A stretch of 64,000 nt of DNA from contig CAUYUJ010000288.1 in assembly GCA_963575745.1 (NCBI GenBank), positions 1 to 64,000 of the forward strand, written 5' to 3'. This stretch comes from Prorocentrum cordatum. Taxonomy: Eukaryota. This document shows positions 1 to 62,489 of the stretch, one piece after another. Numbering within the stretch: position 1 is the stretch's first letter; each line of letters begins with the position of its first letter. The notes below the pieces were generated by a model. That model saw only the letters and a program-made list of their open reading frames with translations, was not told the DNA's origin and ran no database searches. Made by a program: the position numbers and the translations under genes.

Positions 1-183
1 GGAGTGGAGTGGAGTGGAGTGGAGTGGAGTGGAGTGGAGTGGAGTGGAGTGGAGTGGAGTGGAGTGGAGTGGAGTGGAGTGGAGTGGAGTGGAGTGGAGT
101 GGAGTGGAGTGGAGTGGAGTGGAGTGGAGTGGGGTGGGGTGGGGTGGGGTGGAGTGGAGTGGAGTGGAGTGGAGTGGAGTGGA
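1..183. repeat. (GGAGT)n pentanucleotide microsatellite, running off the window edge
   Basis: Direct reading, with a few GGGGT variants at about 131-150. It abuts the 3' end of minus-strand LINE-C. Confidence 0.98.
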
Positions 184-184
184 C

Positions 185-1152
185 GCCACTACGAGGTGAT
201 ATCCGAAACTAACTACCTGAGGCCCTTGCTGCCTGCTGGGCTCGGGTCAGCGCCTTCGGCCACTGCCCTTTCGCCAACCTTCTGAGATATTATTGTCTGG
301 TGGGGGAGAGCCTATCAGTGCACGGTGCTTTAAAATCCTTAGACAGGAGCTCGTTTCAAAATAAGCCACACGCTTGACAATACCAAACCGGGAGGTCAAC
401 TTGAAACGGCATCTTGTGATGGGCCCCGACCCCCCACACAAATATTCAAAGGTTGCTCAGCGGGAGGATGCAAGACATTCGGACTTCCTAGAACGAGATC
501 GAAGCACGAGGACGACCGCCACATGGTGGCAGTGTCGATCGAGGCAGACCCGTGGCACCTGGTACAAGAGCGGCCGCTGGGCCCGAGAACATCGGAGCTG
601 TGGAAAACAGACAGGGCGGTAGGAGGAGGATGAGGAGGAGGAGGAGGAGGAGGAGGAGGAGGAGGAGGAGGGAGGCAGGAGGCGGCGGGGAGGGAGCGTG
701 TCACTCGTCCTCTCCCCGAGTCCTGTCACCTCCGCCACGTAGACAGGACTTGTCGGCCGAGTCGTGGCTGAGAACCTCGAGAGCTGCTCGTGGCAGCCGA
801 CGTCGGATCAGTAAAGCGTCTTTTCCAATCTGCCATGCACGCGCACGCACCGTACTGTTCAACCGACATGTTGCTGCTACTCCTGCCAACTCATCTGCCA
901 CACTATTGCCCGAGACCAGGAAACGCGGTACATCATCCTGCAAGATCTGGGGGGGAGTGAGGTGGGAGTCAACCTTGAGGACGGCAATATGTGACGTGTC
1001 ACGGCCTGTCTCATTCAGGGTCGAGCGTATAATATCCCACGTGCCCAAGCTCCCCCCAGCGGACCGTACATGCAGCCCATCACACCAACCGTCGCAAACT
1101 CCAGAATTGTCCGTGATGCAGATCAGGGGGCCTCTGGAATGGGAAAAGGCTA
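185..1152 (-). mobile_element. 3' part of degenerate non-LTR retrotransposon LINE-C: C-terminal half of RNase H plus C-terminal Cys/His motifs
   Basis: ORF 701..1210(-) has RNase H motifs ICITDN, LKVDSH and GNSVADELAG. Further on are H..CTRC (ORF 396..704) and HKMPFQVDLPVWYCQACGLF*NELLSKDFKAPC (about 418-320). A (GGA)n tract interrupts it at about 620-671. Confidence 0.85.
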
Positions 1153-1280
1153 CGGACCCTGGGGGGTTCTTATCTGACGAGGGCGGCGGTGATATCCATT
1201 GCCAACCCACGATTGGGGTCTCACGGGCTTCCAGACCCTGGATTCCTTACCCGATGGTTCCTTATCCAATGCCCTCACCG
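1153..1280. mobile_element. MITE family M1 copy with a deletion near its left end; host of the LINE-B insertion
   Basis: Colinear with 62378-62489 (CTGGGGGGT..ATCTGA[C/T]GAGGGCGGCGGTGATAT..GCTTCCAG[A/G]CCCTGGA[T/C]TCCTT..ATCCAA..TCACCG). Flanked by TA at 1151-1152 and, beyond LINE-B, at 7523-7524. Confidence 0.8.
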
Positions 1281-3265
1281 CGGACAACATCCTGGACGAG
1301 CTGTGCCTCAGCGGCTGGAGGCAGTCAGAGCCCCGCCGCATCGCCTTTCTGGTCAGGCTCAACAGTGCCCAGCCTCTGGATCGGTGGCGACTCGAGCACG
1401 CGCACTGGAGGCAACTGGCGCAGATCAGGGCCATGTTTCGTCGACTCCTTGGCGACAGAGCTGCTGGAGACCCAGTGCCGCCTCAGAGGCCTGGTGGGGG
1501 AATGGAGTCTGACCCTATTCGTTGGCCTGACCCAGATGACGACCAGGCGATGGATTACGTCGACAACCTGACGGCGAAGCTGGTCATGCTGTCGCACGCG
1601 CCCTCGCAGCAGCTTCCTGGCGGCAGGGTCTCGCCCAGCCAGGCCAACCTGTATGTGGAGCAAGCCAGCCTTGGTTCGCCCTGGTCAGCGAAGGGGGCCT
1701 CTTCGGTTTCGCGGACTGTTGAGTTAGAACGCATCCCTGATGGCGTTAGATCGCAGGGCGTTAGAACGCACGGCGTGGTGGCACGGGGGGGCGCGAGCCT
1801 GTTGGACACCGCCCTTGGCTTCATAGGGGGTCGAGGTGGGCGACCACCCCGTGCCACCAGTCTGCCCCAGTCGCCACCAGCTGGACAAACGCGTAAGAGC
1901 AGTGCAAGACCTGGTCCCGAGTGCTCCTCGAGCTCGGGCCAGGCTCAGTCGCCACCCGCTGGATCAATACCCTCGCCTGTCGAGAGGGTCGTTGGTGTTG
2001 CAGACAGCCCAAGCTGGAAAGCAAGAAGCCAACTCAACACCATAGTCACGGTGGACACCCTGGGCCTCCTGTCTGTCCCCGAGCCGCAGAACATCAAGGG
2101 GGACGTCCTGTCACAGCGGGAGGGGCCGTCTACGCTCTGCTTGGCCAAGCTGGTGGCGCCGCCTGTGGCTAGTCCAGCGTCCTTCATTTCGCTGAATGGC
2201 ACGACTTGGAAGGAGGCGCAGACGGAGCTAGAGCGCCTCTCGGTCCCTGGCGTGAAGGACGGCGTCTACCTTATCCAGGAGACGCGCTTCACGGGGAAGG
2301 AGAAGGAGAGCGAGGCCATCGGATGGGGCACTCGCAACGGCCTCAACGCTTCATTCAGCCCATGCAGGAGAACGGGAAGCTCGGCCCAGTCGGTGTCATC
2401 TGGGGTTGGCTGTCTTGCGGCGGCACACCGAGGATCAGCACCTGTGGACCATCACTGGGGTCCTTTCAGCTCGCGGCTCCTCGCTCGCAGGGTGGTATTC
2501 GGGGACTTGATGGTGATCGTGGTCAGCGCCTACCTGGAGCACTCCGCCAAGATGACGGGCACTAACGTGGAGCTGCTGAGCGAGCTGCAAGTCTTCCTCA
2601 ACTCTCAGTGCGAGCCTTTTGTAGTGGCAGCTGACTGGAACATGGAGCCGCAGCTGTTGGAGAGCTCCTGGTGGCCGCGTTCTGTAGGCGGGGCTGTTGT
2701 GGCGCCCAAGCTTCCTACCTGCTCAGTGCCCTCGGGGAACGATCGAGTATATGACTACTTCGTGATATCGGCCCCCCTTGCGGCTCTGAGCCCAACGGCA
2801 GACGTGCTTCGGCCAACGACTACACACCCCCATGCTCCAGTGCGGCTTACCTTCAGCAAGCTGGGGGCCCAAGCCAAGGTCTGGGTCTTGCGAGGCCCCA
2901 AGCGATTCGACCTGTCGACGCACATCTCGGAGGAGGACCAGCAGAAGGCGGTGGAAGACGCCCAGGACATCGTCTGGCAGGCGGCCCTGCCCTCTCCAGG
3001 CGTGGGGCCTGACGAGGCAGTGCGCGAGTTCTTCGACAAGGCGGAGATCCACTTGATTGGCATGTTGGGTCTCAGTGACGGCCCCAAGTACCGTGGCAGA
3101 GCGGACGGGCTCAAGCGGGTAGAGATCAGCCTCAAGGACCTCCAGCGTACGGGGACTTCCAGAGCCCTTCGACGAGGTTGTGGCTCTCACTCGGCAGGCT
3201 GGTCAAGCAACTCAGGGCAGCAGCTTCGGTCTCAGAGCCAGCCAAAGGCCATGCGCTATACATGA
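1199..3265 (+). CDS. LINE-B N-terminal region plus apurinic/apyrimidinic-type (EEP) endonuclease domain
   Basis: Motifs ISLNG, YLIQETR, SSGVG, VVSAYL, VAADWN, VYDYFV and HPHAPV. The TTG start at 1199 lies in the host MITE, so element-derived sequence begins at about 1281. It probably continues into the next ORF via a frameshift at about 3150-3180. Confidence 0.85.
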   Translation: MPTHDWGLTGFQTLDSLPDGSLSNALTADNILDELCLSGWRQSEPRRIAFLVRLNSAQPLDRWRLEHAHWRQLAQIRAMFRRLLGDRAAGDPVPPQRPGGGMESDPIRWPDPDDDQAMDYVDNLTAKLVMLSHAPSQQLPGGRVSPSQANLYVEQASLGSPWSAKGASSVSRTVELERIPDGVRSQGVRTHGVVARGGASLLDTALGFIGGRGGRPPRATSLPQSPPAGQTRKSSARPGPECSSSSGQAQSPPAGSIPSPVERVVGVADSPSWKARSQLNTIVTVDTLGLLSVPEPQNIKGDVLSQREGPSTLCLAKLVAPPVASPASFISLNGTTWKEAQTELERLSVPGVKDGVYLIQETRFTGKEKESEAIGWGTRNGLNASFSPCRRTGSSAQSVSSGVGCLAAAHRGSAPVDHHWGPFSSRLLARRVVFGDLMVIVVSAYLEHSAKMTGTNVELLSELQVFLNSQCEPFVVAADWNMEPQLLESSWWPRSVGGAVVAPKLPTCSVPSGNDRVYDYFVISAPLAALSPTADVLRPTTTHPHAPVRLTFSKLGAQAKVWVLRGPKRFDLSTHISEEDQQKAVEDAQDIVWQAALPSPGVGPDEAVREFFDKAEIHLIGMLGLSDGPKYRGRADGLKRVEISLKDLQRTGTSRALRRGCGSHSAGWSSNSGQQLRSQSQPKAMRYT

Positions 3266-6200
3266 AGCACCTGGAGCAGGCGATCTTCTCCCTGGCAGTT
3301 CAGTTCGACGGCTTGGGCAACCCGGTGTTCAACGGCACCGAGATGGATACGATAGTTCACGAGGTCAGGAGCGGCTCCTTTGACGGGCTGCAGGTGATGA
3401 AGGCCATCGCCAGGGTCACTGACAAGCACGTCAAGGGCGATGCGTCTGCAGCTAGGACCCGCTGGAAGGAGTTCGTGGACGAGTCGCTGGCGGGAGGAGG
3501 CCGTGGAGCTCATGCTATTAGCAAGAAGGTCCACGGCGAGGCGAAGCCGATCTTGGCGGACGGCAGCGGCGACTCGCCTCCTGTACCACTGGTGGGCCAA
3601 GCGGCCTTGGATCAGATGCTAGTGGAATGGGAGGCCCTGTGGAGCTGCGGGGACGGCCAGCAGACTAGACCTGCTGACTGGCTCACCACGTCGGACCTGC
3701 CCCCGATCACAGCTGAGCAGGTGATAGCGTCGGCGAAGACGTTCGCGAAGAAGACGGCGCTCGGATGGGATGGCTTCCACCCCAGGCTGCTGAAGATGTT
3801 AGGTTGGCCGTTCGCGCAGCGCATGGCGGACGTGCTGACGCAATGGGAAAGGCACCCGCAGCCGACGGCGATGTTCACCACGCTCATCGTCTTCTTGGGC
3901 AAGCCTGGGGGAGGACTTCGCCCCATCGGCCTGATGTGCTTTTGGCTCAGAGTTTGGGGCAGGATTCGCAGGCAGTATTGTTTACAATGGGAGCGCGACC
4001 ACCGCCTTCCTGAGATTTGGGGCAGCAGCTCTGACACCTGCTGCGATAGAGCAGCGTACTTGCACAACTTGTACCTAGGCCTCGCTCGGAAGGTCGGCTT
4101 CGACGGGGTCTCGGTGCACTTTGACATAAGCAAGTTCTACGAGCGAATCGACCACGGGCTGCTTCTGAAGGCGGCCGAGTTAAATGGATTCTGCACAGGC
4201 TTGGTACGTGCGCTCTGTGTTGCATACTCGGGACCGAGGAGAGCTACGGCAGACAGCGCCGTCAGCGAGGAGATACATGCGAGGGGCACGGTCATAGCTG
4301 GCTGCTCGTGTGCAACAACGATGGCCAGGCTCATGCTGATGGACCTTCTTGTCAAGAGCCGAGCCAAGCTCCCCATCGGGAGGATCGTCAGCGTGATTGA
4401 CGACATCTCGGGCAATGGAATCGGATCCAGAGGCGTGCTAGTCAGTCAGATGAACAGCTTCGTCCAGGGCGTCGTGGCGATGCTGAGAGACAAGCGGCTC
4501 CCGATCAACTGGGGCAAGACGAAAGTGCTGGCACCCTCAGTGGACATCCAGCGCGAGCTGATGAATCAGGAGGGGTGGCCGCTGGACAGGGCCGCCTTTG
4601 CTCAAGGACACCGAGATCTCGGTGGTGACGCGACGGCTGGTGGTCACCGTATGGTGGCGACGCAGGTCAAGCGGGAGCTGGATGCACTCCGTCAGGCAGC
4701 GAGACTGACACGCATCTTCGGACCTGGGCTGCGGCAAGCTCGGGTGATGCGAGCTGGGCCGACGGCCAAGGCGCTCTGGGGCTCGGCCATCGCTGGAGTC
4801 CCACCTGGGCGCATGAGGGCGCTGAGGGTGGCAGCTGCTAAGAGCGCTGGGCGCCTGCCGCCTGGAGCGGCCCTCAGCTTTGCCCTGCAGTGTGCGCCCC
4901 GCGGCTGGCGGCAGGACCCGCTGGTGGTGGCAGCGGGAATGGCAGTTCAGGCATTCGTCAACGTGGTGTGGTCTGGACAAGCCACTGCATCAGCCATCCA
5001 AGCGTGCATCCAAGAGAGCCAGCAGGTGCTAAGCAAGCAGCGGCCTTGGAGCTCGGTCCGTCAGCCGATAGCGGCGCTCACGCTCACTCTGCAGAGGATA
5101 GGCTGGCAGCTCTCCGTCGACGGCACCAAGCTGCTGGACGAGGACAAGGGGGAGTTCGAGGTGCTGCATTTCTCGCCCGCGTTCCTGGCGGAGTGGGCCA
5201 GAGAGGCCACGAGGAAAGCGGCTGCGCTGGGGGAGGCCCGAGCTCGTCCTGGATCGCTCTGGCCATGGAAGCTGCCGCCACAGTGGAGGCCAGTCAACGA
5301 GCTGCTCGGCAAGAGGGAGACGGAGACCTGGACTGGGCACCACAAAGGCTGCCTGCGCTGGCTCGTCTCGCTCTCGCACTGGCCCCAGGACCGTCTTGCG
5401 AGGCACTCCTCGGACATCGACCCGATCTGCAAGCTATGCCAGGCTGCACGAGGCACGGTGTTCCACAGGCACCACGTCTGCCCAGCTTGGGAACCTTGGC
5501 GGCGTGACAGGCTGCCGTCCGACCTGAAGCGTGCTGCTTGGTTGGTCCACGAGATGGGCCCGCCGTTCGATGAGCTGTTCTGCCAGGGCCTGTTCGTGGA
5601 CCCCTCCCTGCTGTTGCATCGTCCGTTCTGGCAGCCTCAATGGGAGCGGCTCTCGCATGGTTGGCATGAAGCAGTGGTGGTCGAAGACGGTGCCATGGTT
5701 TTCACAGACGGCTCCTGTATCCTCGGTGACTTTCCGCGCCTGCGCAGCGCTGGCTGGTCGGTCGTCGTGATGTCCAAGGAAGGGGCGATCCTAGCAGAGG
5801 CGTGGGGAGCGGTTCCCCCCAGTCTATGCCCATCGCAGACGGCACGTGCTGGAGAAGACTACGCAGCGGTGGTGGCGCTCACTGAGGTCATTGGCAACTA
5901 CCAGCTGCTGATCGACTGCAAGGGCACAGTGGACTCGGCGCTCAACCTTAGCAGAGCTCAGGGCCCAACTTCGACCTACGCCCATCTCTGGGCCAGAGTT
6001 GGGGATGCCGCGGAAGGTGTTGAAGTCAAGCACATTCCCGCACATCGGTCAGAAGCAGCGGTGGCCAGAGGGGAGATATCGGCTATCGAGCTCTTCGGCA
6101 ACCGCCTAGCAGACAAGCGAGCGAAGGAGGGGGCCGCCCTCCACGCTCTTCCAGCCGACGATGTCCAGCTTCTGGAGGGCTGCTTAGCCAGGGCTCGCGA

Positions 6201-7509
6201 CGCAGCTCGCTTCGCCGCAGAGATCGAGGTCTTCATCACGGATTCTGGGATGCGAGACTGCTGGCCGACGGAAGCCCTGGATAACGTCAACCTCCAGCCG
6301 TACCTCTACCCGTGGAACCTGTCGTGCGAGGACGAGGGCTACGACTTGTTGGACGCCTCCGCGGCGCAGCGTGGCAGGGGCTCGGCAGCTGTGTCAGCGG
6401 CAGCCTTCGCCGCGGCGGCAGCGACCAGCGCAGCGGCAACAGGTGCTGCTGCAGGCGCCGCGGGCGGCGCAGCGGGGCCTGTCCGCAAGCGCCCAGTGGC
6501 TGCGCAGAGGGCCGGCTCCGCCCCTGCCGCCCCCATCGCTGCGGGGCCAGGAGAGGGGGGCATTTCTCGTGCTGAGGCAGCGAGCGAGGTGTTTGCGAGA
6601 GAGGTTCGGCGCAGGGCGGAGGCCAGGTCGTCCGCAGAGTCCTCTCATCGCTCCCAGCTGGAGGAGCAACGCCCGTCCCCTGCCCCCACGACTGGACCCG
6701 AGCCATGGGTAGTGCACGGCCACAACATAATGCAGACCAACGTGGTGAGCAAGCCGAGCGAGGCCATCCTGGTGTGCACGCGCTGCTTCATGTACTGCCA
6801 CCAGCCGCGATACGCGCACAGGGGCCTGGCCAAGCCGTGTGTCGGTGGCGATCACAGATCAAGCCAAGGGTCGCGTGCTCAGGCCAGGACGGACTTCGGC
6901 AGGTTGCGATTGCCAGGCAAGGAGAAGCCGCCGATCGTGATGCTCAAGTCGCCGACGATGGAGGAGATGCAGCGCTGGCGGAGGTCGCTCAAGATGGACG
7001 ACTTCGACGGGCCCATCCTTCAGGTGGACGAGTGCCTGGCGGCGGCGCGTGCTGGCGGCCCTGGCGGCTCGCCAAGGCCTGCGGCTGCACAGCCTGCAGC
7101 GGGGCGAGCTGCTGGCGCGGCTGGGCCTGCGGGCGGAGCGGCGGCGGCTTCGGCGAGCGCCTCGGCTGCCGCGGGCGCGGCGGCGGTGCAGCCCGCGGTG
7201 CGCGAGGGCGTGCAGGAGCTCTTCGTGCCCGCCCTGGAGGACGTCCTCCGCGCGCACGGCTTCGCGTCGGCGGACGACGCCCGCGCCCGAGGGCGCGAGG
7301 CGGCCCAGGCGCGCGGGGAGCGGGACCGCGCGCGGGAGCGCGGCGCGGCGGCCCCGCGAGCGGCGAGGAGGCGGGGCCAGCGCTGGTGAGCCTCCCCCTC
7401 CTCGGCCGCCGAGGGGCCCTCAGCAGTCCCGCGCCGTTTGCGCGGGCATGCGGCAGTGCCCGAGAATTTGTGGCATGACCACGCGGGTGCTCGCGCCCGC
7501 TCGCAGAGT
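1281..7509 (+). mobile_element. Near-intact non-LTR retrotransposon LINE-B (APE endonuclease - RT - RNase H), probably 5'-truncated
   Basis: Bounded by the exact 13-bp direct repeat AATGCCCTCACCG at 1268-1280 and 7510-7522. Two long ORFs with one apparent frameshift. No poly(A) tail. Confidence 0.92.
3178..7389 (+). CDS. LINE-B reverse transcriptase - Zn knuckle - RNase H - C-terminal Cys/His motif polyprotein
   Basis: RT: ALGWDGF, GGLRPIGL, FDISKFYERIDH, GTVIAGCSCAT, SVIDDI. Zn knuckle: CKLC..H...C. RNase H: VFTDGSC, RAGED, IDCKG, HIPAH, GNRLADKRAK. C-terminal: HNIM..CTRC..LAKPC. Confidence 0.95.
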   Translation: MWLSLGRLVKQLRAAASVSEPAKGHALYMKHLEQAIFSLAVQFDGLGNPVFNGTEMDTIVHEVRSGSFDGLQVMKAIARVTDKHVKGDASAARTRWKEFVDESLAGGGRGAHAISKKVHGEAKPILADGSGDSPPVPLVGQAALDQMLVEWEALWSCGDGQQTRPADWLTTSDLPPITAEQVIASAKTFAKKTALGWDGFHPRLLKMLGWPFAQRMADVLTQWERHPQPTAMFTTLIVFLGKPGGGLRPIGLMCFWLRVWGRIRRQYCLQWERDHRLPEIWGSSSDTCCDRAAYLHNLYLGLARKVGFDGVSVHFDISKFYERIDHGLLLKAAELNGFCTGLVRALCVAYSGPRRATADSAVSEEIHARGTVIAGCSCATTMARLMLMDLLVKSRAKLPIGRIVSVIDDISGNGIGSRGVLVSQMNSFVQGVVAMLRDKRLPINWGKTKVLAPSVDIQRELMNQEGWPLDRAAFAQGHRDLGGDATAGGHRMVATQVKRELDALRQAARLTRIFGPGLRQARVMRAGPTAKALWGSAIAGVPPGRMRALRVAAAKSAGRLPPGAALSFALQCAPRGWRQDPLVVAAGMAVQAFVNVVWSGQATASAIQACIQESQQVLSKQRPWSSVRQPIAALTLTLQRIGWQLSVDGTKLLDEDKGEFEVLHFSPAFLAEWAREATRKAAALGEARARPGSLWPWKLPPQWRPVNELLGKRETETWTGHHKGCLRWLVSLSHWPQDRLARHSSDIDPICKLCQAARGTVFHRHHVCPAWEPWRRDRLPSDLKRAAWLVHEMGPPFDELFCQGLFVDPSLLLHRPFWQPQWERLSHGWHEAVVVEDGAMVFTDGSCILGDFPRLRSAGWSVVVMSKEGAILAEAWGAVPPSLCPSQTARAGEDYAAVVALTEVIGNYQLLIDCKGTVDSALNLSRAQGPTSTYAHLWARVGDAAEGVEVKHIPAHRSEAAVARGEISAIELFGNRLADKRAKEGAALHALPADDVQLLEGCLARARDAARFAAEIEVFITDSGMRDCWPTEALDNVNLQPYLYPWNLSCEDEGYDLLDASAAQRGRGSAAVSAAAFAAAAATSAAATGAAAGAAGGAAGPVRKRPVAAQRAGSAPAAPIAAGPGEGGISRAEAASEVFAREVRRRAEARSSAESSHRSQLEEQRPSPAPTTGPEPWVVHGHNIMQTNVVSKPSEAILVCTRCFMYCHQPRYAHRGLAKPCVGGDHRSSQGSRAQARTDFGRLRLPGKEKPPIVMLKSPTMEEMQRWRRSLKMDDFDGPILQVDECLAAARAGGPGGSPRPAAAQPAAGRAAGAAGPAGGAAAASASASAAAGAAAVQPAVREGVQELFVPALEDVLRAHGFASADDARARGREAAQARGERDRARERGAAAPRAARRRGQRW

Positions 7510-7522
7510 AATGCCCTCACCG

Positions 7523-9702
7523 TAACAGGAGCTCATATATTCCGCCTCGAGGAACCGGCTGCTTCCGACCAGGGAGAGGCCCCAGGATACCAGCCTTCAC
7601 GACGGGGGTGTCGTAGGAAGCTGACGTAATTGCTGAAACTCCAACGCGTGTAAAAGCTGGTTCGCGTGCATCTGGTCCTCCAGATGCGTCGCCGAAAACA
7701 ATGACTGGGTGGCCAATCGTGCCGACTCCGAGAGTAGTATCATGCAGAGTTCCCGCCATCTCGTTGCAACCGGCAGTGGACCACGAGGGTTTTGAGCTGG
7801 CTAGCGGCACTGCAGTCCAAGCTCGGGGAATGAGATCCCGCATCCAAAAACAAGCCTCGCTTTCGCCTCTGGCCATGGCTGAACCGACCAAGTTGCCAGA
7901 GGCCTTGAAAGCTTTGTGCTCTCCACTGTTGTTTCTGCAAAGCCAAACTTTATGCAGAGCAGTCTCTGGCGATTCTTGGCATCGAGGGCGAAGTGGGCTG
8001 ACGCGATGACGAGTTTCGTCGACGACGCGTTGACGAGGCCAGAATCCCCCAGTGGCGATGCTGATCATCGCTCTGGCGAGGCGATGTCCGTGATTACTCT
8101 GCCGTCGACTATGAAACACGACGATGGCTAGTATTGTCTACTCCACCTTGGACCCCTTTTCCCCACAAGAATGTCTGGAAGCACGTGACCAGGCAAGCTG
8201 TTGAAATGACTGCTGAAATTCGTCGAGCACCTCGGTCGGGTCCTCAAATCCAGTGGGGCCCTCGTCGGAACAAAAACCAGTGAGCGCCATCGTCTCCTGG
8301 AGTGGACCACTCCTTTGGCGATGTCGGTGTCCATGCTACTTCTAACATGTACCCAATAAGAGCCCTCATGGGGCCCCGAACCTGCCTGGGGAACTGAGAA
8401 GGTAGCATATTTTGAAGCACCCCACGTGCCCGAGGCCAGGCTTGACGAACCATAGGACGAAGATGAGGAACACCAAACCACGTATCTAACCATAACTCCA
8501 TCGCACCCCGAGGAAACGTAGCAAACGGGTCGGCACCAGGAACGCGTAAGTCTAGAAGGGTGGTAAGACATCGCCGTTTTCCTTAGCTCCCATAGACGCC
8601 CCGAGCCGTCGCCTACAACCAACGCGGAAAGATCCAAGCGAACCGTATATTTGTTGGCCAGACGATCCAGCAGCTTGCGCCCCTGCACGTCCCAACCGCC
8701 GAGTAACCTTGTACCGTCTGGATGCACGAGCGAACTTCCGAACCTTGACCGTCATCGGGGATGCTTTGGTGATGCGCTTACGTCGGGTGGAACGGGCAGG
8801 GCGTCCAGCGCCAAGGTCCACGCCGAGGTGCTGAGCCCGGAGCGCGCTCTGAACTGCGAAGCTTGGCGGCCACAAACACACCGTCGCAGGAATTGGAACA
8901 TATTGGAGCACTCTTGGGAGCGGCTTTCAGACCTGCCTTGGAGAGCTCGCTGCACGCATCGCGCAGGCACCAATAAAACTTGGCACGAACAACCTTCTTG
9001 GACCCAACAACCCTTTGATAGAGTTCGTCGACCCAAATCCTCATGGGCGCCCCCACGTGGGTGGTAGTGATTTTGGGAAGGATGAAATCAACCATGCACC
9101 TGCCGAAGCGTGCGCCACTTCTGAGACCTTGCACTATGCTCCGAAATGGTTGAAATGCGACAGAGAAACAACCGTCTTGGGCGAGAGTTCGCGGGGCCAT
9201 GCAATTCCGAAGCTCCAGCCCTAGAACGACAGCGGGGAAATGAAATTGAAGAGAAGTGCCGACCAACGCCTCCCAAGACATTGAATCTTAAAAAGCTCCA
9301 ACATCGATCAAACCCGTGCCGAAATCGATACCCATCCGCATCCAAGCTCCATCTTGTAAAGCTCGAACGAAACTTCGCGGAGTGCTGAGTTGCCTCGGAT
9401 GGTGGCGTCCACGCTGGCTCTGAGGAGGAGATCCAGGAGCGAACATCTCCACGAGCTAACAACCACACTCGGGTGAACATGGCCATTGACCCGGCCACCC
9501 TGTCGCCCCTATTTTTCTTCCCGAGAAGCTTATTTATGACGATGATCACTTGCCAGGGCCATGTGAGCCGTGCTTCGCATGCTTGAAGTAACTGCAGAGG
9601 CTGCTGGGCACCTTCAGGTGGAAGCCGCTGCATATCGATCGGTGACATCTGGCCGACACCCTGACCAGCGCGTGCTTCCATACCTCGAAGAGCGGTTTCC
9701 AC
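7523..9702 (-). pseudogene. LINE-C RT, Zn-knuckle remnant and RNase H N-half
   Basis: GKKNRGDRVAG, RSIVQGLRSG, IWVDEL (YxDD equivalent), QHLGVDLG, PRCQESPETALHKVWLC, VFGDASGG, GPLPGRKQPVPRGGIYELLL. Confidence 0.85.
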
Positions 9703-10989
9703 CCGATCGCCCGCGAGATCAGGTAAGTGATCGTCTTCGGCTGCAGCTCGAATCCGATCGTGCAGTTGGCCTAAGGCGCGGAGTCAGACTTCGCCTGGGC
9801 TCCACAGATTGTGTCATCGCTTGGCCTTCTGGTCTAAAACGTCTTTGTGGGTAAAAAGGACCTCACCACCAACCTCGATCTCAGAGGAAGGGTTGGGGGT
9901 GGACTTGCGGGCCTTGTGGAGCACTCCAATGGCTTCGGAGTGGAAATCCATCCCCGAAATTCGCCCAAGGAACTTTGGAGATCCCGACGCCTGGCACGAG
10001 CTGCTACGCGTTTGGCCAACGACCAAAGATGTTGCAACGTAGTCATATCTAGCGACTGCGCATGCAAAAACTGAGACTGCCAAATCGACCAAGAGCCGTC
10101 CGCTGGGTCGAGAGACGCAAGTAGGAGGTGAACTAATTCTGGAACGTCACCGGCTAGAGCTGAGAACGTTGCTGAAGGGCGAACCCGTCGTATTGCCCCG
10201 CTGCCTTCTATAACCACGTGATGGCAAATATTGTGAAGTACAGTGTGTGTACCCTTCCCAACCAGCATGCAACTTGCCCGTGCCAGGGTTCCGTGCGAAC
10301 TGTATCCAGCACGTGAAGCCTGGTATCCTCCTGGCATCGCTCGGACGTGTGCATTTTCCCTTCGGCGAGGACTATCGAGGAGCATCCTCGATCATTTGGA
10401 AAAAAAATCACGCACGAAACCAAAAAATACACAGGGAATGGACGTCCGAGCGATGGCGAGTCCTTGAAGTGTGGGCCTTCGGCCCTGGACCGGAGAGGAG
10501 GCCGTGCGTCACGATGCGCCGCGAAGGTCTGCCCCACTTGTGCGTGCCCGTTGTGAATGCGACGCGCTCCCACTCATGATGTGCTCGTGACCCGCGTGAA
10601 GTGCAGCGGAGTCCCTCATCGCAGGCCGAGCATCTTCTGACTTGCCCGCCGGTGCGCGCCCGATGCCCCGCTCGGCGGTTGCCCAGGACTCGTCGGAGAT
10701 GGCGAAGGTGGGAAGAGGAGGGGAAGGAGAACAAGGGCCCGCCTGATCCCCGCTGGGCCTTTCGGGGGCGGGTGGGTTTACAACCTCTAAGGTTGGTTCG
10801 TGGGCTTCTTGCTCGAGCTGGAAATCGCTAGCCTGCGACTCGGACGCGCTGGGCCCCCGCACCCCCAGGAGGAGACCCTGCCAGGGGGGCGAGCGAGAGA
10901 GGGGCCCAGGGACCGCACCTTCATCGTCCGAGTCGTCAGACAAAAGCTGTACTTGTGCTGTTGAGGAGCCTTGAGCGTCCTCATTCGAA

Positions 10990-11694
10990 TCAAACCTCCG
11001 AACAGCTCCTGGTGCTGCTCGTCGGCAAACATACGAGCAGCAAGTTTTTTTTCCGCAACGAGGCACGATTCTGACTAGACTTGGACCCAGCCTGTGGCAA
11101 CTTCTTGGGCCTCGGGGCCTGCGGAAGCTTGGGGGCCATGCGAAGCTCACGACAAAGCAACTGCTGACTGGAACTGCGAAGTACGTCGAACCGAGCTTCG
11201 ACGCGAGAAATGAAGGGAACGCTGGCTCTGCTTGCAAGCACGTGGTCGATGTGAGTCCCTGCTCCTATTGAACGTATGTGCTGCAACGGCCATTTGTAAA
11301 TCATGCCGTCGACTCGGTCAACAAAACCTACCCGCTGGAGAGTCTTTGGAGGAACGTTCCAACCCCCAACAACAATCCACGGGAGACGGCGCTGCTGGAG
11401 CAGAGCGCCGAGACGAGCTAGCCGTGGGAGATTGCGCCCGCGGTGCCCTTCGCCAGAGTTAGGGTAAAACGTGACACGGACGTAAGAGTATCCTTCAACC
11501 TCCTGCAGTGGACCAGTCCAGAGAAGAAGTACCATCTGCTGTAAGGTCCTTCCAGGCCCCGTCGGGGTGCGCAAGGGAGTGAACTTGCAAGTGCTTCTTG
11601 CTGAGAATGCATTATCCGCCCTCGTTGGCACGAGCCTGACCTGCTGAGGTCGACCCAGTGCCCGTGCTACGAGCAGGGTTGCAAAATTCTGCAA
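10990..11694 (-). pseudogene. LINE-C APE-type endonuclease remnant
   Basis: VTFYPNSG, LPWIVVGGWNVPP (GDWN-like), THIDHVLAS. Confidence 0.8.
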
Positions 11695-11925
11695 CTTGGC
11701 CTTCGCGGCCTCTTACTTCCAATGAGCAGTGCTGTCATTGGATTCGACGTGAGTCTCGCACAAGGAATGACACTGTAACTAGAAGCCCTGCCGCTAGTGA
11801 GAAAACCCCAGTCCTTTTTGCTGAGCAACGTGATGCTGGCAACAAAACATCGGTGTCTCACTGGACGACGACGTGGGCTCCCACCCCGCGGGAGCCGGCC
11901 TCAGTGCAGTCACCGACCCAAGCTC

Positions 11926-12134
11926 TGGACGCCCGAAATGGGTACTGAAAGAATGGGTACTATGCCCAACAGCAGTTCCTGTTCATTCTGAACAGGACTC
12001 GCTGTCCGCGCCGCCGCGGCCTGTGTCCATTCGAGACAGGAGGCCGCCCGCCCAACAGCGGCCGCTGTTGGTTTGGGACAACATTTGTTGTTGGGCATAG
12101 TGCCCATTCTTTCGGTACCCATTTCGGGTGTCCA
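11926..12134. repeat. 49-bp inverted repeat pair (foldback/MITE-like) inside LINE-C
   Basis: 11926-11974 versus the reverse complement of 12086-12134 match at 45/49. An internal perfect palindrome CCAACAGCGGCCGCTGTTGG lies at 12052-12071. Confidence 0.9.
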
Positions 12135-12529
12135 AACAAGCGATTGGCGGCTCGAGTGGCTCCCGTGCGGGTATCGCTCGTCGTTGCTGCTGGCCGCCGC
12201 CGCTGCTGCCCGAGCTGCTGCCAGCTTGGCTGCGCTGAGCCGCCGCGCCCCGGCCGCTGTCCCGGCCTCGCCGCTGGGCGCCTGGCCGGCCGCGGGCCCC
12301 GCTGCGGCTGCGCCGCCGGCGCTGCCCGCCGTGGGCTGCGCAGCCTCGCCGCGCGGGTCATTCCCAGAGATCCAACGTCCTGAAAATTTTTGCAATTTTT
12401 GGCCTCGATCTAGGGGCCGTCGCCGGGCCCCGGGACCGTGAAGAAACGGCTCAGGATGAACAGCCGGTCCCGTGGAGTGGATCGAGGCTTCTGGGGGCCG
12501 CGCATGGAAAAAATCACGGCGTCGGATCT

Positions 12530-13463
12530 CTGGGTTGCCGCTGCAGCCTCCGTCGGCTGCGCTCCCACTGGCGCCTGCCGCGGAGCTGCCATCGTTGCCC
12601 TTGCGCTTCTTGGCCGTGCGCTTCATGATGGTGTCCTGCACGGCCCGATGCTTGGCGGGCCACTCCTGGACCTCAGACGACTTGTTGCCCACCAGATCGC
12701 GCACAGACCTGAGGTCGGCCTCGATCCGCTTGAGGCCGGCCTTCTCCGCGTCGCTGACCTCCATCGTGTCCAAACCCTTGGAGAATTCCTCGTCCCAGGA
12801 GGCTGAGAACAACGCCTGCCCTTTGCTGTCGGAGCTGGCCGAAGAAAGTTCACGATTGGGTACGACTCCATTGAGCCCGGCCAGCGCCCGAACTGCGAGA
12901 TGCTGGGACTTCTCGGCCTTCGCGAAGGGGGAGCGCCGCTGCTGCCTCACGCTCTGTGGCCTTCTCAACGACTTCGCGCGCACGAAGGGGAGCTTGAACT
13001 GCTTGATCGTGTTTGGTGGCCGCATCACGCACAGCCGCTGTAGCTCGACGCACCGACTCCTCGGGTGTGATGGCCTTCTCGGAGGCGCTGCCGTCGTGGG
13101 TCTCGAGCTTCTGCACGTGAGCTGTGAGGATGGCCTTCATCGCTGGATCGGCGGTGATTGACAGAGCCTGCTCGTGCACCGCCGTCGGAGATGATGTGGT
13201 TGCTGCTGGACTCGGTGCCCTTGGAACGCGGGCGAGGTAGTGGCCGTCCTGGCCCCTTTGCTGAACTGCGGGGCTGCCTTGGATCGGTACAGCGTGACCT
13301 CTGCATAGCACTTCGGGCACCGACGCCGTTGCTGCAATAATACTCTGTTCCGCTCTTGACGCCCGCACTTCTGACATGCTGACCATCCATCGGGAGACGG
13401 TTCCGAACTGTCGGGAGAGGCGCCATGAGACTGTGACTTGAACCCTGGCTTCTTCTTGGCCAT
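12530..13463 (-). pseudogene. LINE-C ORF1 remnant with N-terminal CxxC-x15-CxxC finger and helical/coiled-coil-like region
   Basis: ATG at 13463 gives MAKKKPG...WSACQKC..RRRCPKC. It continues through frameshifts in ORFs 12850..13386 and 11910..13028 (LKRIEADLRSVRDLV..KRTAKKRK). Confidence 0.65.
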
Positions 13464-13575
13464 GGCTGGAGAGAAAGGAGATGTGGAACTGCCCTCCTTA
13501 GTCAGCCTGTTGGAGCGGTGCCAGAACACTGCCCCTCCTGGTGCCCCTCAGGCGCCACGGGGAGGCGAGGGCGGG

Positions 13576-13611
13576 CTCAGGACAAAATGTCCGGAGCCGA
13601 AATGGCTTGAG
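13576..13611 (-). other. Tandem relict dinoflagellate spliced-leader sequences at the LINE-C 5' end
   Basis: The minus strand reads CTCAAG-CCATTTCGGCTCCGG-ACATTTTGTCCTGAG. That is the SL 3' hexamer followed by 12/15 and 10/15 matches to the relic CCATTTTGGCTCAAG. Confidence 0.75.
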
Positions 13612-13765
13612 GGAGGAGGAGGAGGAGGAGGAGGAGGAGGAGGAGGAGGAGGAGGAGGAGAGGAGGCGGAGGAGGAGGGAGGAGGAGGAGGAGAGGAGGC
13701 GGAGGAGGAGGAGGCGGAGGAGGAGGAGGCGGAGGAGGAGGAGGCGGAGGAGGCGGAGGAGGAGC
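13612..13765. repeat. (GGA)n microsatellite flanking the LINE-C 5' end
   Basis: Direct reading. Confidence 0.95.
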
Positions 13766-13904
13766 GTGGACGTGTACGCCCCCATGCCCCGAATCATCAT
13801 TGGGTGGTGCACGGTCGGGGACTTCTGCACGGCGTGCCTCGCCGCGGGCTCCGAGGCCTGCCGCGCCGCGACGCGGCACGCCCCCCGCGCCGCGCTTTGC
13901 CGCG

Positions 13905-14787
13905 GCGCCTCGCCGACCGGTCTCTGCCGAGCCTCCCGGCCCGTCCAGCGGAGCGACGCGCGAGCCGCTTGCGAGGGCACGGGGTATCGTCAAACGACGC
14001 GAAGATCGGGACAAAATCGGATCGGGATAACTCGAAATCTCTGAGAATCGGCGGGTTGGGAGGATGTATTGGGCGCCGCGGCCGCTCCAGAGCGTTCCTG
14101 AACGCCCTGAGAGCGCTCCGGAACGCTCTGGAGCGATTTGTCCCGATCCTAGCCCTGTTTTAAGGGCACGGGGTGTCGCCGGGGCGGCTCGCCGACCGGT
14201 CTCTGCCGAGCCTCCCGCGGCCCGCCCAGCGGAGCGACGCGCGAGCCGCTTGCCAGTGCACGGGGTGTCGTCAAACGACGCGAAGATCGGGACAAAATCG
14301 GATCGGGATAACTCGAAATCTCTGAGAATCGGCGGGTTGGGAGGATGTATTGGGCGCCGCGGCCGCTCCAGAGCGTTCCGGAACGCCCTGAGAGCGCTCC
14401 GGAACGCTCTGGAGCGATTGATCCCGATCCTAGCCCTGTTTTAAGGGCACGGGCAGCGGAGCGACGCGCGAGCCGCTTGCCAGGGCACGGGGTGTCGTCA
14501 AACGATGCGAAGATCGGGACAAAATCGGATCGGGATAACTCGAAATCTCTGAGAATCGGCGGGTTGGGAGGATGTATTGGGCGCCGCGGCCGCTCCAGAG
14601 CGTTCCGGAACGCTCTGAGAGCGCTCCGGAACGCTCTGGAGCGATTTGTCCCGATCCTAGCCCTGTTTTAAGGGCACGGGGTGTCGCCGGGGCGGCTCGC
14701 CGACCTGTCTCTGCCGAGCCTCCCGCGGCCCGCCCAGCGGAGCGACGCGCGAGCCGCTTGCCAGGGCACGGGGTGTCGTCAAACGAC
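13905..14787. repeat. Tandem repeat, about 281-bp unit (one unit about 227 bp), about 3.3 copies
   Basis: GCACGGGGT[A/G]TCGTCAAACGA recurs at about 13977, 14258, 14485 and 14766. The units are near-identical and the last is cut by LINE-D. Confidence 0.95.
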
Positions 14788-17700
14788 ATCTCTCGGGCTA
14801 GGAAGGACTGGGCCGCCTGGCTTTCGGAGGGTATCAACCAGGGTGCCAGAAGAGCCCACCAAGTTTCTAGGGATCCCGCGGCTTGGAGGCCGACGAGTAC
14901 GCTGAGTAGGTTCCGTTCCTTGGTCGCGGATCCTACGGAGCTGCTGAACGCTGAAAGGACTAAGTTTGGGAAACTTTGGCATGCCAGCTCCCAGGCCCCC
15001 AAGATTAGGGTTCGCACCCAGGATCCGCTTCCTGCCATCCCAGTCGAGACGAGCAGAGAGATCTCTCGGGGTTTCTCACGTAGGTCTGCTGTCGGTCTGG
15101 ACGGCTTCCACATGAGGCACTACCAGTTCCTGGGCGATGATGCCCTTCGGTGTTTTTCGGAGCTCTGGACCTTGGTGGAGCTGCCTGGGGGGGTGCTTCC
15201 TAGTCAACTTCGGGCCCTCATCGTGGCCTTGATTCCGAAGACGGTTCCTGGATTTCGCCCCATCGGGGTTTTCTCCAGCCCCTACCGCTTGTGGGGGAGG
15301 GCTCGCCGCCCGATTGCTGTGTCCTGGGAGGCCCAAAACGATCGGCCCTACTGGGCTGCTGGGAAGCATCGCTCTGCGACAGACGTGGTCTGGAGGCAAG
15401 CCATGCGAGCTGAGACCAGCACGGCAAGAGGCCGTCACGCAGGCGCAGTTTTTTGGGATATGCTGAAGTACTACGAGCAGATTCCCTTAACGCTGCTCGA
15501 GCAGCGTAGCCTCAGGCTTAAGTTTGATCATGTTGTGTTATCGGTGTGCTTGTCGGCGTACCGATCGGCTAGATTCATGGTCTTGTGCGGGGTGGTTTCC
15601 CCTTTCCCAGTACGTTTCCTTCGGTGTTGTCGCGGGTTGCTCGATGGCGACTACCCTGATCAAAGCTCACGGGATGGAGGCTTTTGATTCCGTTCCGATC
15701 GCCCCTGACACTACGCTGGACATTTACATCGATGACACGGTTTTGAATTCGGTTGGATCGGCCGACACCGTGGTCGAGAGTTTAAAGGAGTCTTCGGCCG
15801 CCCTCGAGGTGGCGATCACTCGCATGATGAGGGCCCAAATTTCCATGGACAAGGTGGCTTGTGTCGCCTCTTCCAAGGTCATGTCCCTTCGGCTGGAAGA
15901 GGCGTTCGGGCCTCTGGTGGGCCCCCCCCTCGAAACCACGGTGAACCTGGGGATTGATTTTACGGCAGGGACCTCGAGGCGTGTTCGTGGCCGCAATGCT
16001 AGGGCGAAGGCCCGCTTGTCGAACGCAGCCAGGCGTACCAGGAGGCTGCTGAAGCTTAGGGGCGTTCTTGGACGTAGGACAGCTAAGGTGTTCGTTTCGG
16101 GCCTCCTGGCGGGCCTGCAGTACGGCTCGGAGGTGCACGGCATGACTGACGGAGAGTTGGCGTCAGTACGTAAAATGTTTGCTTCTACGTTGAAGCCGTC
16201 GGCTGGAGGTCGCAGCTTGACGATTTTGACTCGGTTGGAATCGGACCCTGTCTGGTACGGCTCGGTGGCGCCTATTGTTAGATATGTGCGTGAGTTGTGG
16301 CTTCTGCAGACGCATGCGTCCCCATGGGGGCTTTCGTGGGCTGGGTTGCGGTCGTCTTGGGAAGCTACCTGGAGTGCCCCCCCAAAGACGTGTACATCGG
16401 TTAAGGGACCGATGGGAGCTATGTATCTTTCTTTGGCCAGACTGGGTTGGACGATGCCCGACTCCTACACATGTACGGGCGATACTGGAAGAAATATTCC
16501 TCTCCTGGTCTCCTCCCCCGCCCTTTTAAAGAGGTGTTTAACAGATTATGTCCTTCGTGGCTTGGAGTTTGCTGCTGGAGAGAAATACGGCGACGGTGAT
16601 CGGTTGTGCTTTGACTTGGTTTCCAGGGCCTTGGTTTCCAAGAGATTCTCCCCCAGGCAGAAGGGCGCCATTAGAGCGCTCACTTGCCAGGCTTTGTGGC
16701 CTATGTCTCGGGCTGCGGAGAAGGGCTACATCGTGCCCGATGTGTCCCCTGTGCTCTAGGAGTGGAGACGCGGTGCTCCACAGACTGTGGTTTTGCGAGG
16801 CCTGTGAAGACAAACGGCAAGAAGTTGTCGATCCCGAGCTTTTGGATCGCATCCGTGGTGACCTGGGAGCGAACTCGACCCCTTCCTTTCGTTCCCTGTG
16901 CGAGTCGGGATTGTTCCCTCACCCAGCTAAGGACTTGCCTGGCCCTCTTAGTCACGAAGCCGCCCTTGAGGCAATTAGATACGAGTTCTTTCCTAGGGCC
17001 TTCGCCGAGGAAGGACTACCGCCGCCACCCCAGGGGATGAGGGAGATCTCGGGTAAGATTTTCTTGGATGGCTCGTGCTTTAAGTCGAAGGTCAAGGACC
17101 TGTCTAGGAATGGCTGGGGTGCTGTGATGATCGGTCCTTCGGGAAAATTGCTCGCTAGGATCTTTGGGTCTGTGAGCAATTTCTTCTCTCAGGCGAGCGT
17201 GGCCGCCGAGTTTATCGCCCCTGCCACGATCGCCAACCTCCTTGGCGGTCCCAGTTGGCTTTTCTCCGATTGTCAGATTGTTGTTAATGAGTCTAACAAG
17301 ACTCAGGCCGGGCGCCTCCACCCGAACAGGCCCTACGCTGGCCTTGTCTTGCAAGCGTTTGCTTTCGGTGGGGGTCACTTGGAAGAGCTGGCCAAGGTGA
17401 AAGCCCATCAAGAAGACGATCCGTCCCTTCCGCTGGATGATCGCATTTTTAATGTGGGGGAACACAGAGGCCGACAGGGCCGCTAAGATGGGGGCGTTGC
17501 TCCACCCCCGACTTTCGGAGTCCGAGGAGAGGCGTGTTGCTTATCTCGCGGACGTTGCGCAGGCCACTCTTCGGCTTGCGGCGAATCTTCTTGAGCTCTG
17601 GCCCCGTTCGAATCTTGAAGGAAGGGGTTGCTCGTGTTGTGGCCCCTCCCCCCTCGGCGAGAGCGGCGGGATCGCAGCATAGTTGGAACTGGGTTGGGCG

Positions 17701-45639: not shown

Positions 45640-45812
45640 CCAGACCCCCGACGTCGTGATTTTCTCACAGCGTCGACCCCCAGAGGTCTGGACCCCTTCC
45701 CCGGGAACGGTTTTTCGTCCTGAGTCGTTTTTTGACGGTCCTGAGGCCCGGTTAGGGTCCCCGGAGGCCGAAAATCATGAAAAACTTCCCGTCGTGATTT
45801 TTTCACAGCGCG
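45640..45812. repeat. Representative copy of an abundant dispersed repeat of about 170-200 bp
   Basis: CAGACCCCCGACGTCGTGATTT..GTCGACCCCCAGAGGTCTGGACCCCTTCCC..TTTTGACGGTCC[C/T]GAGGCCCG..GAGGCCGAAAA..CCCGTCGTGATTTTT. Related copies occur in both orientations at about 12400, 30340, 35240, 47110, 47550, 48340, 54565, 56600, 58730, 59220, 59500, 59750, 60120, 60930, 61945, 62530 and 62705. Confidence 0.85.
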
Positions 45813-46507
45813 AGGAGGTCTGGGTAGCGAGCATCCGACGTAAAAGAGAAACTCCCCCCGACGTAAACCTTCCCGGGGAGGGGGGATGCTTTTTTGTTCC
45901 TCCCTCCTCCTCCTCCTCCCCCTCACCCTCCCCCTCCCCCTCCCCCCCCTCCTCCTCCTCCTCCTCCTCCTCCTCCTCCTCCTCCTCCTCCTCCTCCTCC
46001 TCCTCCTCCTCCTCCTCCTCCTCCTCCTCCTCCCCCTCCTCCCCAGCGCCCCGCGGCCAGTACGTGGACGGCGAGCGCGACGGCGCGGACCGGGGCGTCC
46101 ACCGCCTGCTGAAGGCGCGGTGGGCGCGCGCGGGGTGGTTGCGCCTGCGGGGAGAGGACCTCCTCCCTTCGGGACGCAGGTGAGGGGGATCTCCTCCTCC
46201 TCCTCCTCCTCCTCCTCCTCCTCCTCGCTCCCTACTCCTCCTCCTCCTCCTCTCCTCCTCCTCCTCCTCCTCTCTTCCTCCTCCTCCTCCTCCTCCCCTC
46301 CCCCTCCCCCTCCTCCTCCTCCTCCTCCTCCTCCTCCTCCTCCTCCTCCTCCTCCTCTTCCTCCTCCTCATGGCAAGGAGGGGAGGGGACAAGCGCGCGG
46401 CTTTCAGGGGGGAGGCCGTGGGCGAAGAGCAGACTCTCATCCCTGGGAGGAGAGGATCTCCTCCCTAACCGGGGCCAGCCTAAGCCCTCCGATCCCCTCG
46501 ACAGACC

Positions 46508-46922: not shown

Positions 46923-48201
46923 CCGATGCGCGCCCGGCGCCGCCGCGAGCCCCTCGCTCGCCGCCGAGACCCGGGGCCGGCCCTTCCTGCCGTAACTGCG
47001 CTGACCCGCGTTTCCCGCCTCCTCCTCCTCGTCCTTTTCCTCCTCCTTCTCCTCCTCCTCCTTCTCCTCCTCCTCCTCCTTTACCCTCCCCATCCAGACT
47101 CCCTCGCGTCGTAAAAAACACGACGGGAGGTTTTTCGCTATTTTCGGCCTCTGGGGGCCCTTACCCGCCCTCGGGACCGTCAAACAACATCTTGGGATTG
47201 AAAATTGGTCCTGGGGTATGGGTCCAGACCTGTGGGGGTCGACGTCTGAAAGAGACGACGTCGGCGGTCTGGTTTGGGAGCGACAGTCGGACCGAGGTAC
47301 GAGATCGAGGTCGATTGGGGGAGGGTGCCCTCACGTGCTTCGTGCTCGTTGGGCGCTCTGTGCGCATCCTGCCCAGACCCCGAACTGTGCGTTTTGTTTC
47401 ACAACGTCGACCCCCAGAGGTCTTGATTTGTGTCCTGATGTTTGTCCTGATTTTTTGTCCTGATTTTTTCGTCCTGACCTGTTGTCTTTATTTTTTCTCC
47501 TGATTTTGTCCTGATTTTTCTGTCCTGGGACCGGTTGTTTGTCCTGATTTTTTGACGGCCCCGAGGCCCGACAAGGGCCCCCGGAGGCCGAAAATGGTGG
47601 ACAACTTCCCGTCGTGATTTTTTCGCAGCGCGAGGAGGTCTGGGTGGGGATGGTACCCTTGGATGCTCCGTGTGTTCTGGCTGGCGGAGGGTCTCATGCT
47701 CTTCTGGCCTAGGTCCGACTTCAGGAGTGAAACAAAAAACACAGGCACAACTCATCGTCGACCCCCAGGAAAGCATGGGAAAACATGGGAAGTGGGGGGA
47801 ATAGACGAAGATCCAGAAAGTATGGACAAGTATTATGGGGATTCTGGGGATTTGTGTGAATTTATTTGTGTGTCCCTGAGCCCCCGTCACGACTGTACAC
47901 TTCGAGGTCGATTGGGGAGGGCGCCCTAATGTGCTTCGTGCTTGTTGGGCGTTCTCTTTGCGCATCCTGGGGAGGGTACCCTTGGATGCTCTGTGTGTTC
48001 TGGCCGGCGGAGGGTCTCATGCTCCTGAAGGATGCTCTTCTGGCCTAGGTCCGACTTCAGGAGGGACGAAACACACACAGACACAAGTAATCGTCGACCC
48101 CCCGGAAAGCATGGGAAAGTTGGGGGAAAGTGGGGGGGTGGGGGGATAGACGACGCTCCAGAAGGTATGGGCAAATTTCATGGGGAGCCCTGGGATTTGT
48201 G

Positions 48202-48234
<33 letters not shown>

Positions 48235-48792
48235 CTGTGTCTGTGTCTGTGTCTGTTTGCCCAGAGATCCAGTGCCGTGATTGTTTCAACACGCGGTCCC
48301 TGGAAGCCTCGATCCATTCCTCAGGACCGGCTTTCCATCCTGAGTCGTTTTTTGACGGTCCCGAGGCCCGGCGAGGGCCCCTAGGGGCCGAAATTCGCGA
48401 AAAACCTCCGTCTTGTTTTTTTCGATACAGTCGGGACCCTGAAGAAGGAACCCTTTTGGTTGGGGAGGGGCTCCGCGTTCCTGAAGTGTTTCACGGCTTG
48501 CCTCAGGTTTCCCTTAGTTCTTCGATAGGATTTCGAAGTTTGACTTCTGGGAAACAGGGGCCTCGTTCCTTATTGAGGGTTCCTTAGGCCAACGCCCCGA
48601 CTGCACGTTGGATCTCTGGGTGTGCGTCTCGGGGCCCCGTCGCGGCCGCGCCCTGCGCGGCGGGGCCGCGGCGCCGCGACCGCGGCCGCGGCGGGCCTGG
48701 GCGGTCGCCGGCCCGGGGCAGCGCGGCCCTGGACTGCCTCCCCTCGCGGCTCGAGCCCGAGGGTCGGCGGCCTCGAGGTTCGGAGGCTGCTA

Positions 48793-62334: not shown

Positions 62335-62489
62335 CAGTGGGGGGGCGTTAAGGAATGCGCCCGGGCGGCTTCAGATGCTGGGGGGTCCCTAATCTGATGA
62401 GGGCGGCGGTGATATGCACGGCGAAGCCTCAAGTTATGTGCCGCCTGCTTCCAGGCCCTGGACTCCTTCCTCATCCAACTCCTTCACCG
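62335..62489. mobile_element. MITE family M1, full-length copy, Tc1/mariner-like ends
   Basis: TA|CAGTG ... CACCG|TA with an imperfect TIR; homologous to 1153-1280. Confidence 0.8.

Follow-up and report, generated by a model that had tools for sequence, protein, structure and literature searches.

Three nested repeats in a Prorocentrum cordatum contig: a LINE within a short abundant repeat within the RNase H region of a decayed LINE

We analysed a 64,000-nucleotide stretch of Prorocentrum cordatum DNA (contig CAUYUJ010000288.1 of assembly GCA_963575745.1, positions 1 to 64,000 of the forward strand), referred to throughout as the window, in which three repetitive elements lie nested between positions 185 and 13611. 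The outermost is a long interspersed nuclear element (LINE) on the minus strand, LINE-C, whose RNase H coding region is interrupted by a 128-base repeat (the short repeat), which is itself interrupted near its 3' end by a second LINE on the plus strand, LINE-B. A first-pass annotation had proposed this arrangement from the sequence, taking the short repeat for a miniature inverted-repeat transposable element (MITE), and its positions were all borne out when the sequence was read again. The features are listed below in window coordinates, with the strand where one was assigned; the domains of LINE-C were placed by full-length relatives.

185..1152, minus strand: 3' arm of LINE-C, with the RNase H second half at about 869-1150 and a stop codon at 701-703; 185 is the putative outer end
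1150-869, minus strand: LINE-C RNase H, second half
1151..1152: TA, left copy of the 2-base duplication around the short repeat
1153..1280: short repeat, copy 1 (the MITE of the first-pass annotation), 128 bases, very abundant, flanked by TA, without a terminal inverted repeat
1268..1280: left copy of the 13-base LINE-B target-site duplication, coinciding with the 3'-terminal 13 bases of the short repeat
1281..7509, plus strand: LINE-B, 6229 bases, with predicted endonuclease, reverse transcriptase and RNase H in order; 3' end taken from the duplication only
about 2171-2986, plus strand: predicted LINE-B endonuclease, from relatives mapped by tblastn
about 3343-6180, plus strand: predicted LINE-B reverse transcriptase and RNase H, in a frame that runs on to 7389
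7510..7522: right copy of the 13-base duplication and true 3' end of the short repeat; copy 2 ends likewise, followed by TA
7523..7524: TA, right copy of the 2-base duplication
7525..13611, minus strand: 5' arm of LINE-C, with at least four frame changes; 13611 is the putative outer end
8071-7526, minus strand: LINE-C RNase H, first half
8606-8112, minus strand: LINE-C region before the RNase H (thumb and zinc finger)
9936-8853, minus strand: LINE-C reverse transcriptase
11710-11041, minus strand: LINE-C endonuclease
62335..62489: short repeat, copy 2, uninterrupted; 62372-62489 is shared with copy 1, and 62335-62371 is extra

The full-length relatives place the endonuclease, reverse transcriptase and RNase H of LINE-C in this order on the minus strand. 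When 1153-7524 is dropped, the two pieces of the RNase H rejoin in frame, as had been proposed, and translation of the minus strand gives one open frame through the junction; the insert measures 6372 bases (128 + 6229 + 13 + 2), a multiple of three. The two sides of the junction were compared with the same proteins. A comparison of the right piece (7526-8137, minus strand, 204 residues) with 1.84 billion proteins gives 427 relatives at E ≤ 0.001 and 52 at 1e-10, the closest being Pyramimonas sp. data-set fragments with 36-72% identity. The left piece (704-1150, minus strand, 149 residues) was aligned to the best 150 of the 427; with E-values calculated for this 150-protein set, it aligns to 42 of them at E ≤ 10 and to 14 at E ≤ 0.004, many of the 150 being short fragments that stop before the second half of the RNase H. 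Both pieces map to one LINE family, on adjoining residues of the same intact relatives. In nine of the 14 best relatives the projected gap between the pieces is exactly one residue, the junction codon, and this is the gap that the join predicts, since base 7525 and one TA together make up that codon. Both alignments touch the junction in P0070 (1003|1005), P0038 (510|512), P0028 (350|352) and P0130 (278|280). The second half is carried by residues 1005-1096 of P0070 on 1150-872 and by residues 1444-1508 of P0127 on 1033-869.

Domain searches point the same way. In the relatives, Pfam RNase_H scores above its cut-off across the junction point, with 49.9 bits over 288-443 in P0028, 40.1 in P0130, 41.1 in P0045 and 36.0 in P0068. 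On a local profile, derived from 19 relatives over their RNase H region and distinct from the Pfam model, the joined peptide gives a single ungapped domain of 113.9 bits (profile positions 11-176), while the right half alone gives 48.0 bits (10-73) and the left half alone 50.5 bits (80-176). A BLASTP comparison of the joined peptide with the second open reading frame (ORF2) of LINE-B also yields a best match that spans the junction onto the LINE-B RNase H, at E 0.36 and 19% identity, too weak to use. The restored domain had been described as complete and colinear. It is colinear and ungapped but functionally incomplete: a Gly occupies the column of the catalytic Glu (window 7526-7560, minus strand), with the Asp, Asp, His and Asp positions kept, and the Glu singled out earlier lies three residues beyond the profile's catalytic column. 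Because of this Gly, the sequence marks the LINE-C RNase H as a colinear but dead copy of the domain.

The short repeat occupies the gap thus opened in LINE-C. TA is present on both sides of the insert, at 1151-1152 and 7523-7524, as previously noted; one TA is needed to restore the frame, and the one-residue spacing in the relatives fits one original and one duplicated TA. Tc1/mariner elements target TA, and a 2-base duplication has also been reported for ISL2EU. Copy 1 can be removed exactly to the base and has TA at either side, which would fit a TA-targeting cut-and-paste transposon; the duplication may be the mark of such an element. The second copy in the window, annotated in the first pass as an uninterrupted MITE at 62335-62489, ends as described: its final TCACCG reaches 62489, the next two bases (62490-62491) are TA, and TA is found at 62333-62334 as well. 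Its 37 extra 5' bases (62335-62371) are absent from copy 1 and from a further copy, the second of two that stand 18 bases apart in one contig of a public sequencing run (X1, below), and copy 2 may start at 62372 instead. The second of these tandem copies starts at about 1153-1155, in favour of a genuine 5' end at 1153. BLAST aligns the two window copies over 102 bases at 74.5%, a modest similarity, and their last ~25 bases align too. Copy 2 is flanked by inverted copies of a third family of short repeats.

Contigs from other copies of these repeats define the boundaries independently. Contigs of four public runs were placed on 701-13600 at 80% likeness. Of these, X1 derives from a single organism and X2 and X3 from marine metagenomes; X4 contributed one contig and was uninformative. 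Counts of loose ends and joints are counts among the matches listed, and stretches of X2 and X3 without contig cover were left out of inference. Summed contig depth over LINE-C at 701-1130 is 4.5 in X1, 0 in X2 and 0.59 in X3, and rises to 377, 52.6 and 57, respectively, in the bin 1131-1560, which contains the short repeat. In X1 it is ~63-175 over LINE-B and ~1-11 over LINE-C beyond 7581, outside the two repeats inserted there. This contrast is large and present in three runs: three separate repeat families meet at these boundaries. At least nine loose ends in X2 and at least 29 in X3 stop at 1280, and the consensus of the bases that follow starts with TA; it is otherwise poor, with an overall agreement of 0.39-0.46, and these ends therefore represent many copies in different places. 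The short repeat is accordingly small (128 bases), non-coding and of high copy, with a depth far above its neighbours in the three runs, as expected of a MITE.

For LINE-B, two contigs mark the 5' boundary. Record 2 of X1 (814 bases) matches 1282-1579 and then continues with 516 unlike bases, and record 17 of X3 (373 bases) matches 1282-1564 and then continues with 90 unlike bases; other LINE-B copies therefore start there without 1153-1280, and it had been asked beforehand whether they include that segment. At this boundary AATGCCCTCACCG occurs at 1268-1280 and again at 7510-7522, identical in 13 of 13 positions as originally reported, and the neighbouring bases differ, making it exactly 13 long. 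It is the LINE-B target-site duplication, derived from the terminal 13 bases at the 3' end of the short repeat. An exact 13-base repeat alone is not rare, two 12-base exact repeats being found in the same 6.5 kb; this one carries weight because it is positioned at boundaries that other copies define independently.

A two-layer arrangement, in which 1153-1280 would be a 5' leader of LINE-B, LINE-B would have entered LINE-C directly and the 13-base repeat would be due to chance, could draw on the chance origin of such 12-base repeats in this region and on the LINE-B endonuclease frame, which is open from 1193, through the short repeat. That frame has no ATG before 1433, the first in-frame ATG of LINE-B, however, and the two contigs that match from 1282 differ upstream of it. 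The bin containing 1153-1280 has several times the depth of LINE-B in all three runs, at least 38 loose ends stop at 1280 in the two metagenomes, and the related copy at 62372-62489 has no LINE-B adjoining it. We consider this arrangement very improbable.

LINE-B itself had been called nearly intact, and it is: one frameshift separates it from a continuous frame, and many copies exist with a likeness of ~90-97%, pieces of other copies differing by ~3-13%. In its single-protein relatives, the endonuclease maps in frame 2 to 3148 and the reverse transcriptase in frame 1 from 3328. The frameshift lies near 3162, where the endonuclease frame and the reverse transcriptase/RNase H frame overlap (3079-3265), and other LINE-B copies carry seven additional bases behind 3162 (depth 27 of 43.3 in X1 and 6.6 of 6.6 in X2); the two domains stand in different frames because this copy lacks the seven bases. 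Pfam scores for LINE-B fall below the curated cut-offs, with 16.6 bits for RVT_1 (cut-off 29.6), 14.4 for Exo_endo_phos (cut-off 24.5) and 25.4 for RNase_H; identity to RVT_1-carrying proteins is 24-32% over 600-1000 residues. Among named proteins, those of the dinoflagellate Prorocentrum cordatum are its best relatives, with 32% identity. LINE-C, described from the outset as heavily decayed, shows at least four frame changes along its path and near single-copy contig depth. Self-comparison of the window reveals no second DNA copy of either LINE. A third LINE is present at 14647-17604 on the plus strand, with 24-27% protein identity to LINE-B and 29-40% to the database proteins P0152, P0153 and P0155; its reading passes successively through three frames and hence involves at least two frameshifts.

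The short repeat lies inside LINE-C, as the result of the RNase H join indicates, and LINE-B lies inside the short repeat, as follows from the 13-base duplication and the boundaries given by other copies. From this nesting we read a sequence of events at one locus, with LINE-C first, the short repeat second and LINE-B last, and place its probability at roughly 85%. The same order had been put forward in the first-pass annotation; it follows from the nesting and fits the relative decay of the two LINEs. LINE-C, an endonuclease-type retrotransposon without long terminal repeats, would have been present on the minus strand and already decaying when the 128-base, abundant and non-coding repeat entered its RNase H coding region between the two domain halves, duplicating TA. 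The young, multi-copy 6.2-kb LINE-B would then have entered on the plus strand by target-primed reverse transcription at a point 13 bases from the 3' end of the repeat, with duplication of those 13 bases. Later, this LINE-B copy would have lost seven bases near 3162, splitting its single long frame. No host function need be invoked for any of the three elements.

The same nesting could arise in another order if LINE-B had already resided in the short repeat elsewhere and the 6.4-kb composite had moved into LINE-C as a unit. Both ends of the short repeat are indeed present around LINE-B, at 1153 and 7522, as such a move would leave them. Against it, the DNA upstream of 1282 differs in two other LINE-B copies, a transposase would find no inverted ends on the repeat to bring together, the 6.4-kb cargo would be fifty times the size of the repeat, and sequential insertion requires no additional assumption; we regard a composite move as highly unlikely. 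An assembly artefact, with the joins between repeats made by the assembler, is hardly probable at all. It is true that all four joins fall at repeat boundaries, where assemblers err, and that no listed contig spans the whole stretch, but a chimeric join would produce neither the two duplications, of 13 bases and of TA, nor the restoration of the RNase H to the exact residue.

Several observations weigh against the sequential insertion of three elements as set out above. The remaining five of the 14 best relatives project gaps of -11, -10, 3, 5 and 11 residues between the RNase H halves; in at least three of these five, one alignment ends well before the junction. Neither half alone matches Pfam RNase_H, even at E ≤ 10. 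No LINE-C copy with an empty site was seen among the contigs, and none is expected at single-copy depth; among the matches listed, no other copy contains the LINE-B 3' end at 7509. Contig depth is not the same as copy number, and X1 is possibly the sample behind the window assembly, in which case it is independent for other copies only. Only two copies of the short repeat lie in the window, 74.5% alike, and the 5' flank of their shared part is TT in copy 2 and TG in the tandem X1 copy, not TA. Finally, the short repeat lacks a terminal inverted repeat: 0 pairs of at least 8 bases were found in 1145-1290, and none in a terminal position in 62325-62500. The same scan did find a perfect 14-base pair and 102-base arms in two other elements within LINE-C. 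The MITE label given to the repeat in the first-pass annotation thus does not hold as regards inverted repeats.

Further searches bearing on the short repeat were negative. Rfam returned 0 matches at the gathering score in the whole window, and hence neither a tRNA-like head of a short interspersed nuclear element nor a hammerhead, although the repeat contains a CTGATGAG-like motif. A set of 117 metagenome loci retrieved with a 17-base core of the repeat was rejected, since the match never extended beyond 17-38 bases (0 of 117), as for chance matches in other organisms.

LINE-C holds further independent insertions besides the short repeat with LINE-B. A 129-base element at 10332-10460 has a perfect 14-base inverted repeat (10335-10348 and 10442-10455) and TCC on both sides; the summed contig depth of its bin is 11489 in X1, 1914 in X2 and 3049 in X3, and loose ends occur at 10332 and 10457/10460. 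The element is a true MITE-like insertion, far more abundant than the 128-base repeat. In the 5' part of LINE-C, a 213-base near-palindrome at 11924-12136 has 102-base arms that are 72% complementary and CAAGC on both sides, with bin depths of 19572 (X1), 2680 (X2) and 3507 (X3) and loose ends at 11924 and 12136. The third short repeat family, of ~150-185 bases, has many copies in the window, often as inverted pairs, and one of them lies in LINE-C:

12387-12535: copy of the third short repeat family
45640-45824: copy of the third short repeat family
47094-47272: copy of the third short repeat family
48260-48384: copy of the third short repeat family
61930-62112: copy of the third short repeat family
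62497-62667: copy of the third short repeat family
62703-62855: copy of the third short repeat family

At the supposed outer ends of LINE-C, a (GGAGT)n array at the window start (1-183) adjoins the 3' end, and GGA-rich microsatellite arrays recur at 610-700, just after the LINE-C stop codon, at 13609-13770, by the supposed 5' end, and at many sites in 23270-63100.

Nested transposons are routine wherever repeats are dense, and the locus matters little by itself. It does provide a clean worked example for the annotation of a poorly described, repeat-rich marine genome, and it ranks three families by relative age. For a young LINE family that was probably still active recently it locates both ends, the 5' end being confirmed by other copies and the 3' end putative; for a very abundant short repeat it gives the exact ends together with a probable TA target. 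The abundant short repeats of this genome include one without inverted ends.

Among known systems, the two LINEs resemble the endonuclease-type clades, including some L1-like, I, Tad1 and related elements, in which RNase H follows the reverse transcriptase. LINE-B and LINE-C appear to share with these the order endonuclease, reverse transcriptase, zinc-binding region and RNase H, and LINE-B is likewise flanked by a duplication, here of 13 bases. LINE-B differs in having one long frame instead of two ORFs, and in ending without a poly(A) or simple-repeat tail.

For the middle element, the nearest comparison among DNA transposons is with Stowaway-type MITEs, which belong to the Tc1/mariner superfamily. 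The short repeat resembles them in its 128-base length, its non-coding and abundant nature, its base-exact excision and the flanking TA found on each side of copy 1. In contrast to them, it has no terminal inverted repeat, its ends sharing only CGG...CCG; its 5' end varies between copies, and no transposase partner was seen.

The short repeat also bears a likeness to introner-like elements. On the minus strand, both copies (1153-1280 and 62372-62489) carry, two bases in from one end, a donor-like GGTGAG or GGTGAA and, six bases in from the opposite end, an AG preceded by a run of C. Passages of three publications (PMC9860276, 10.1101/2020.10.14.339549 and PMC7789003) describe short, abundant intron-creating elements in marine algae and dinoflagellates, some of them without inverted repeats and some carrying both splice sites and adding few bases to the transcript, with duplications of 3-9 bases. 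The short repeat is alike in being short, abundant, found in a marine protist, devoid of inverted repeats and equipped with splice-site-like ends. Its duplication is of 2 bases, not the 3-9 given in those passages, and the 10 extra bases left by splicing at its sites would not be a multiple of three. That it might be an introner-type element with both splice signals on one strand, and not a classical MITE, is a reading suggested by these motifs that we consider distinctly unlikely. Were it true, insertions in transcribed DNA would largely be spliced out, and a very high copy number would be possible in a marine alga. A literature search for Pyramimonas with introner or transposable elements returned nothing relevant.

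As a whole, the locus is best compared with nested transposons, such as the nested retrotransposons of maize intergenic DNA, and with the 'transposition in transposition' approach, which dates elements relative to one another by their nesting. As in those cases, a younger element interrupts an older one, excision in silico restores the older element, and target-site duplications mark the events. There is no difference in kind; the layers here are a LINE, a short DNA-type repeat and a second LINE, and the setting is a GC-rich marine protist or alga instead of a plant or mammal.

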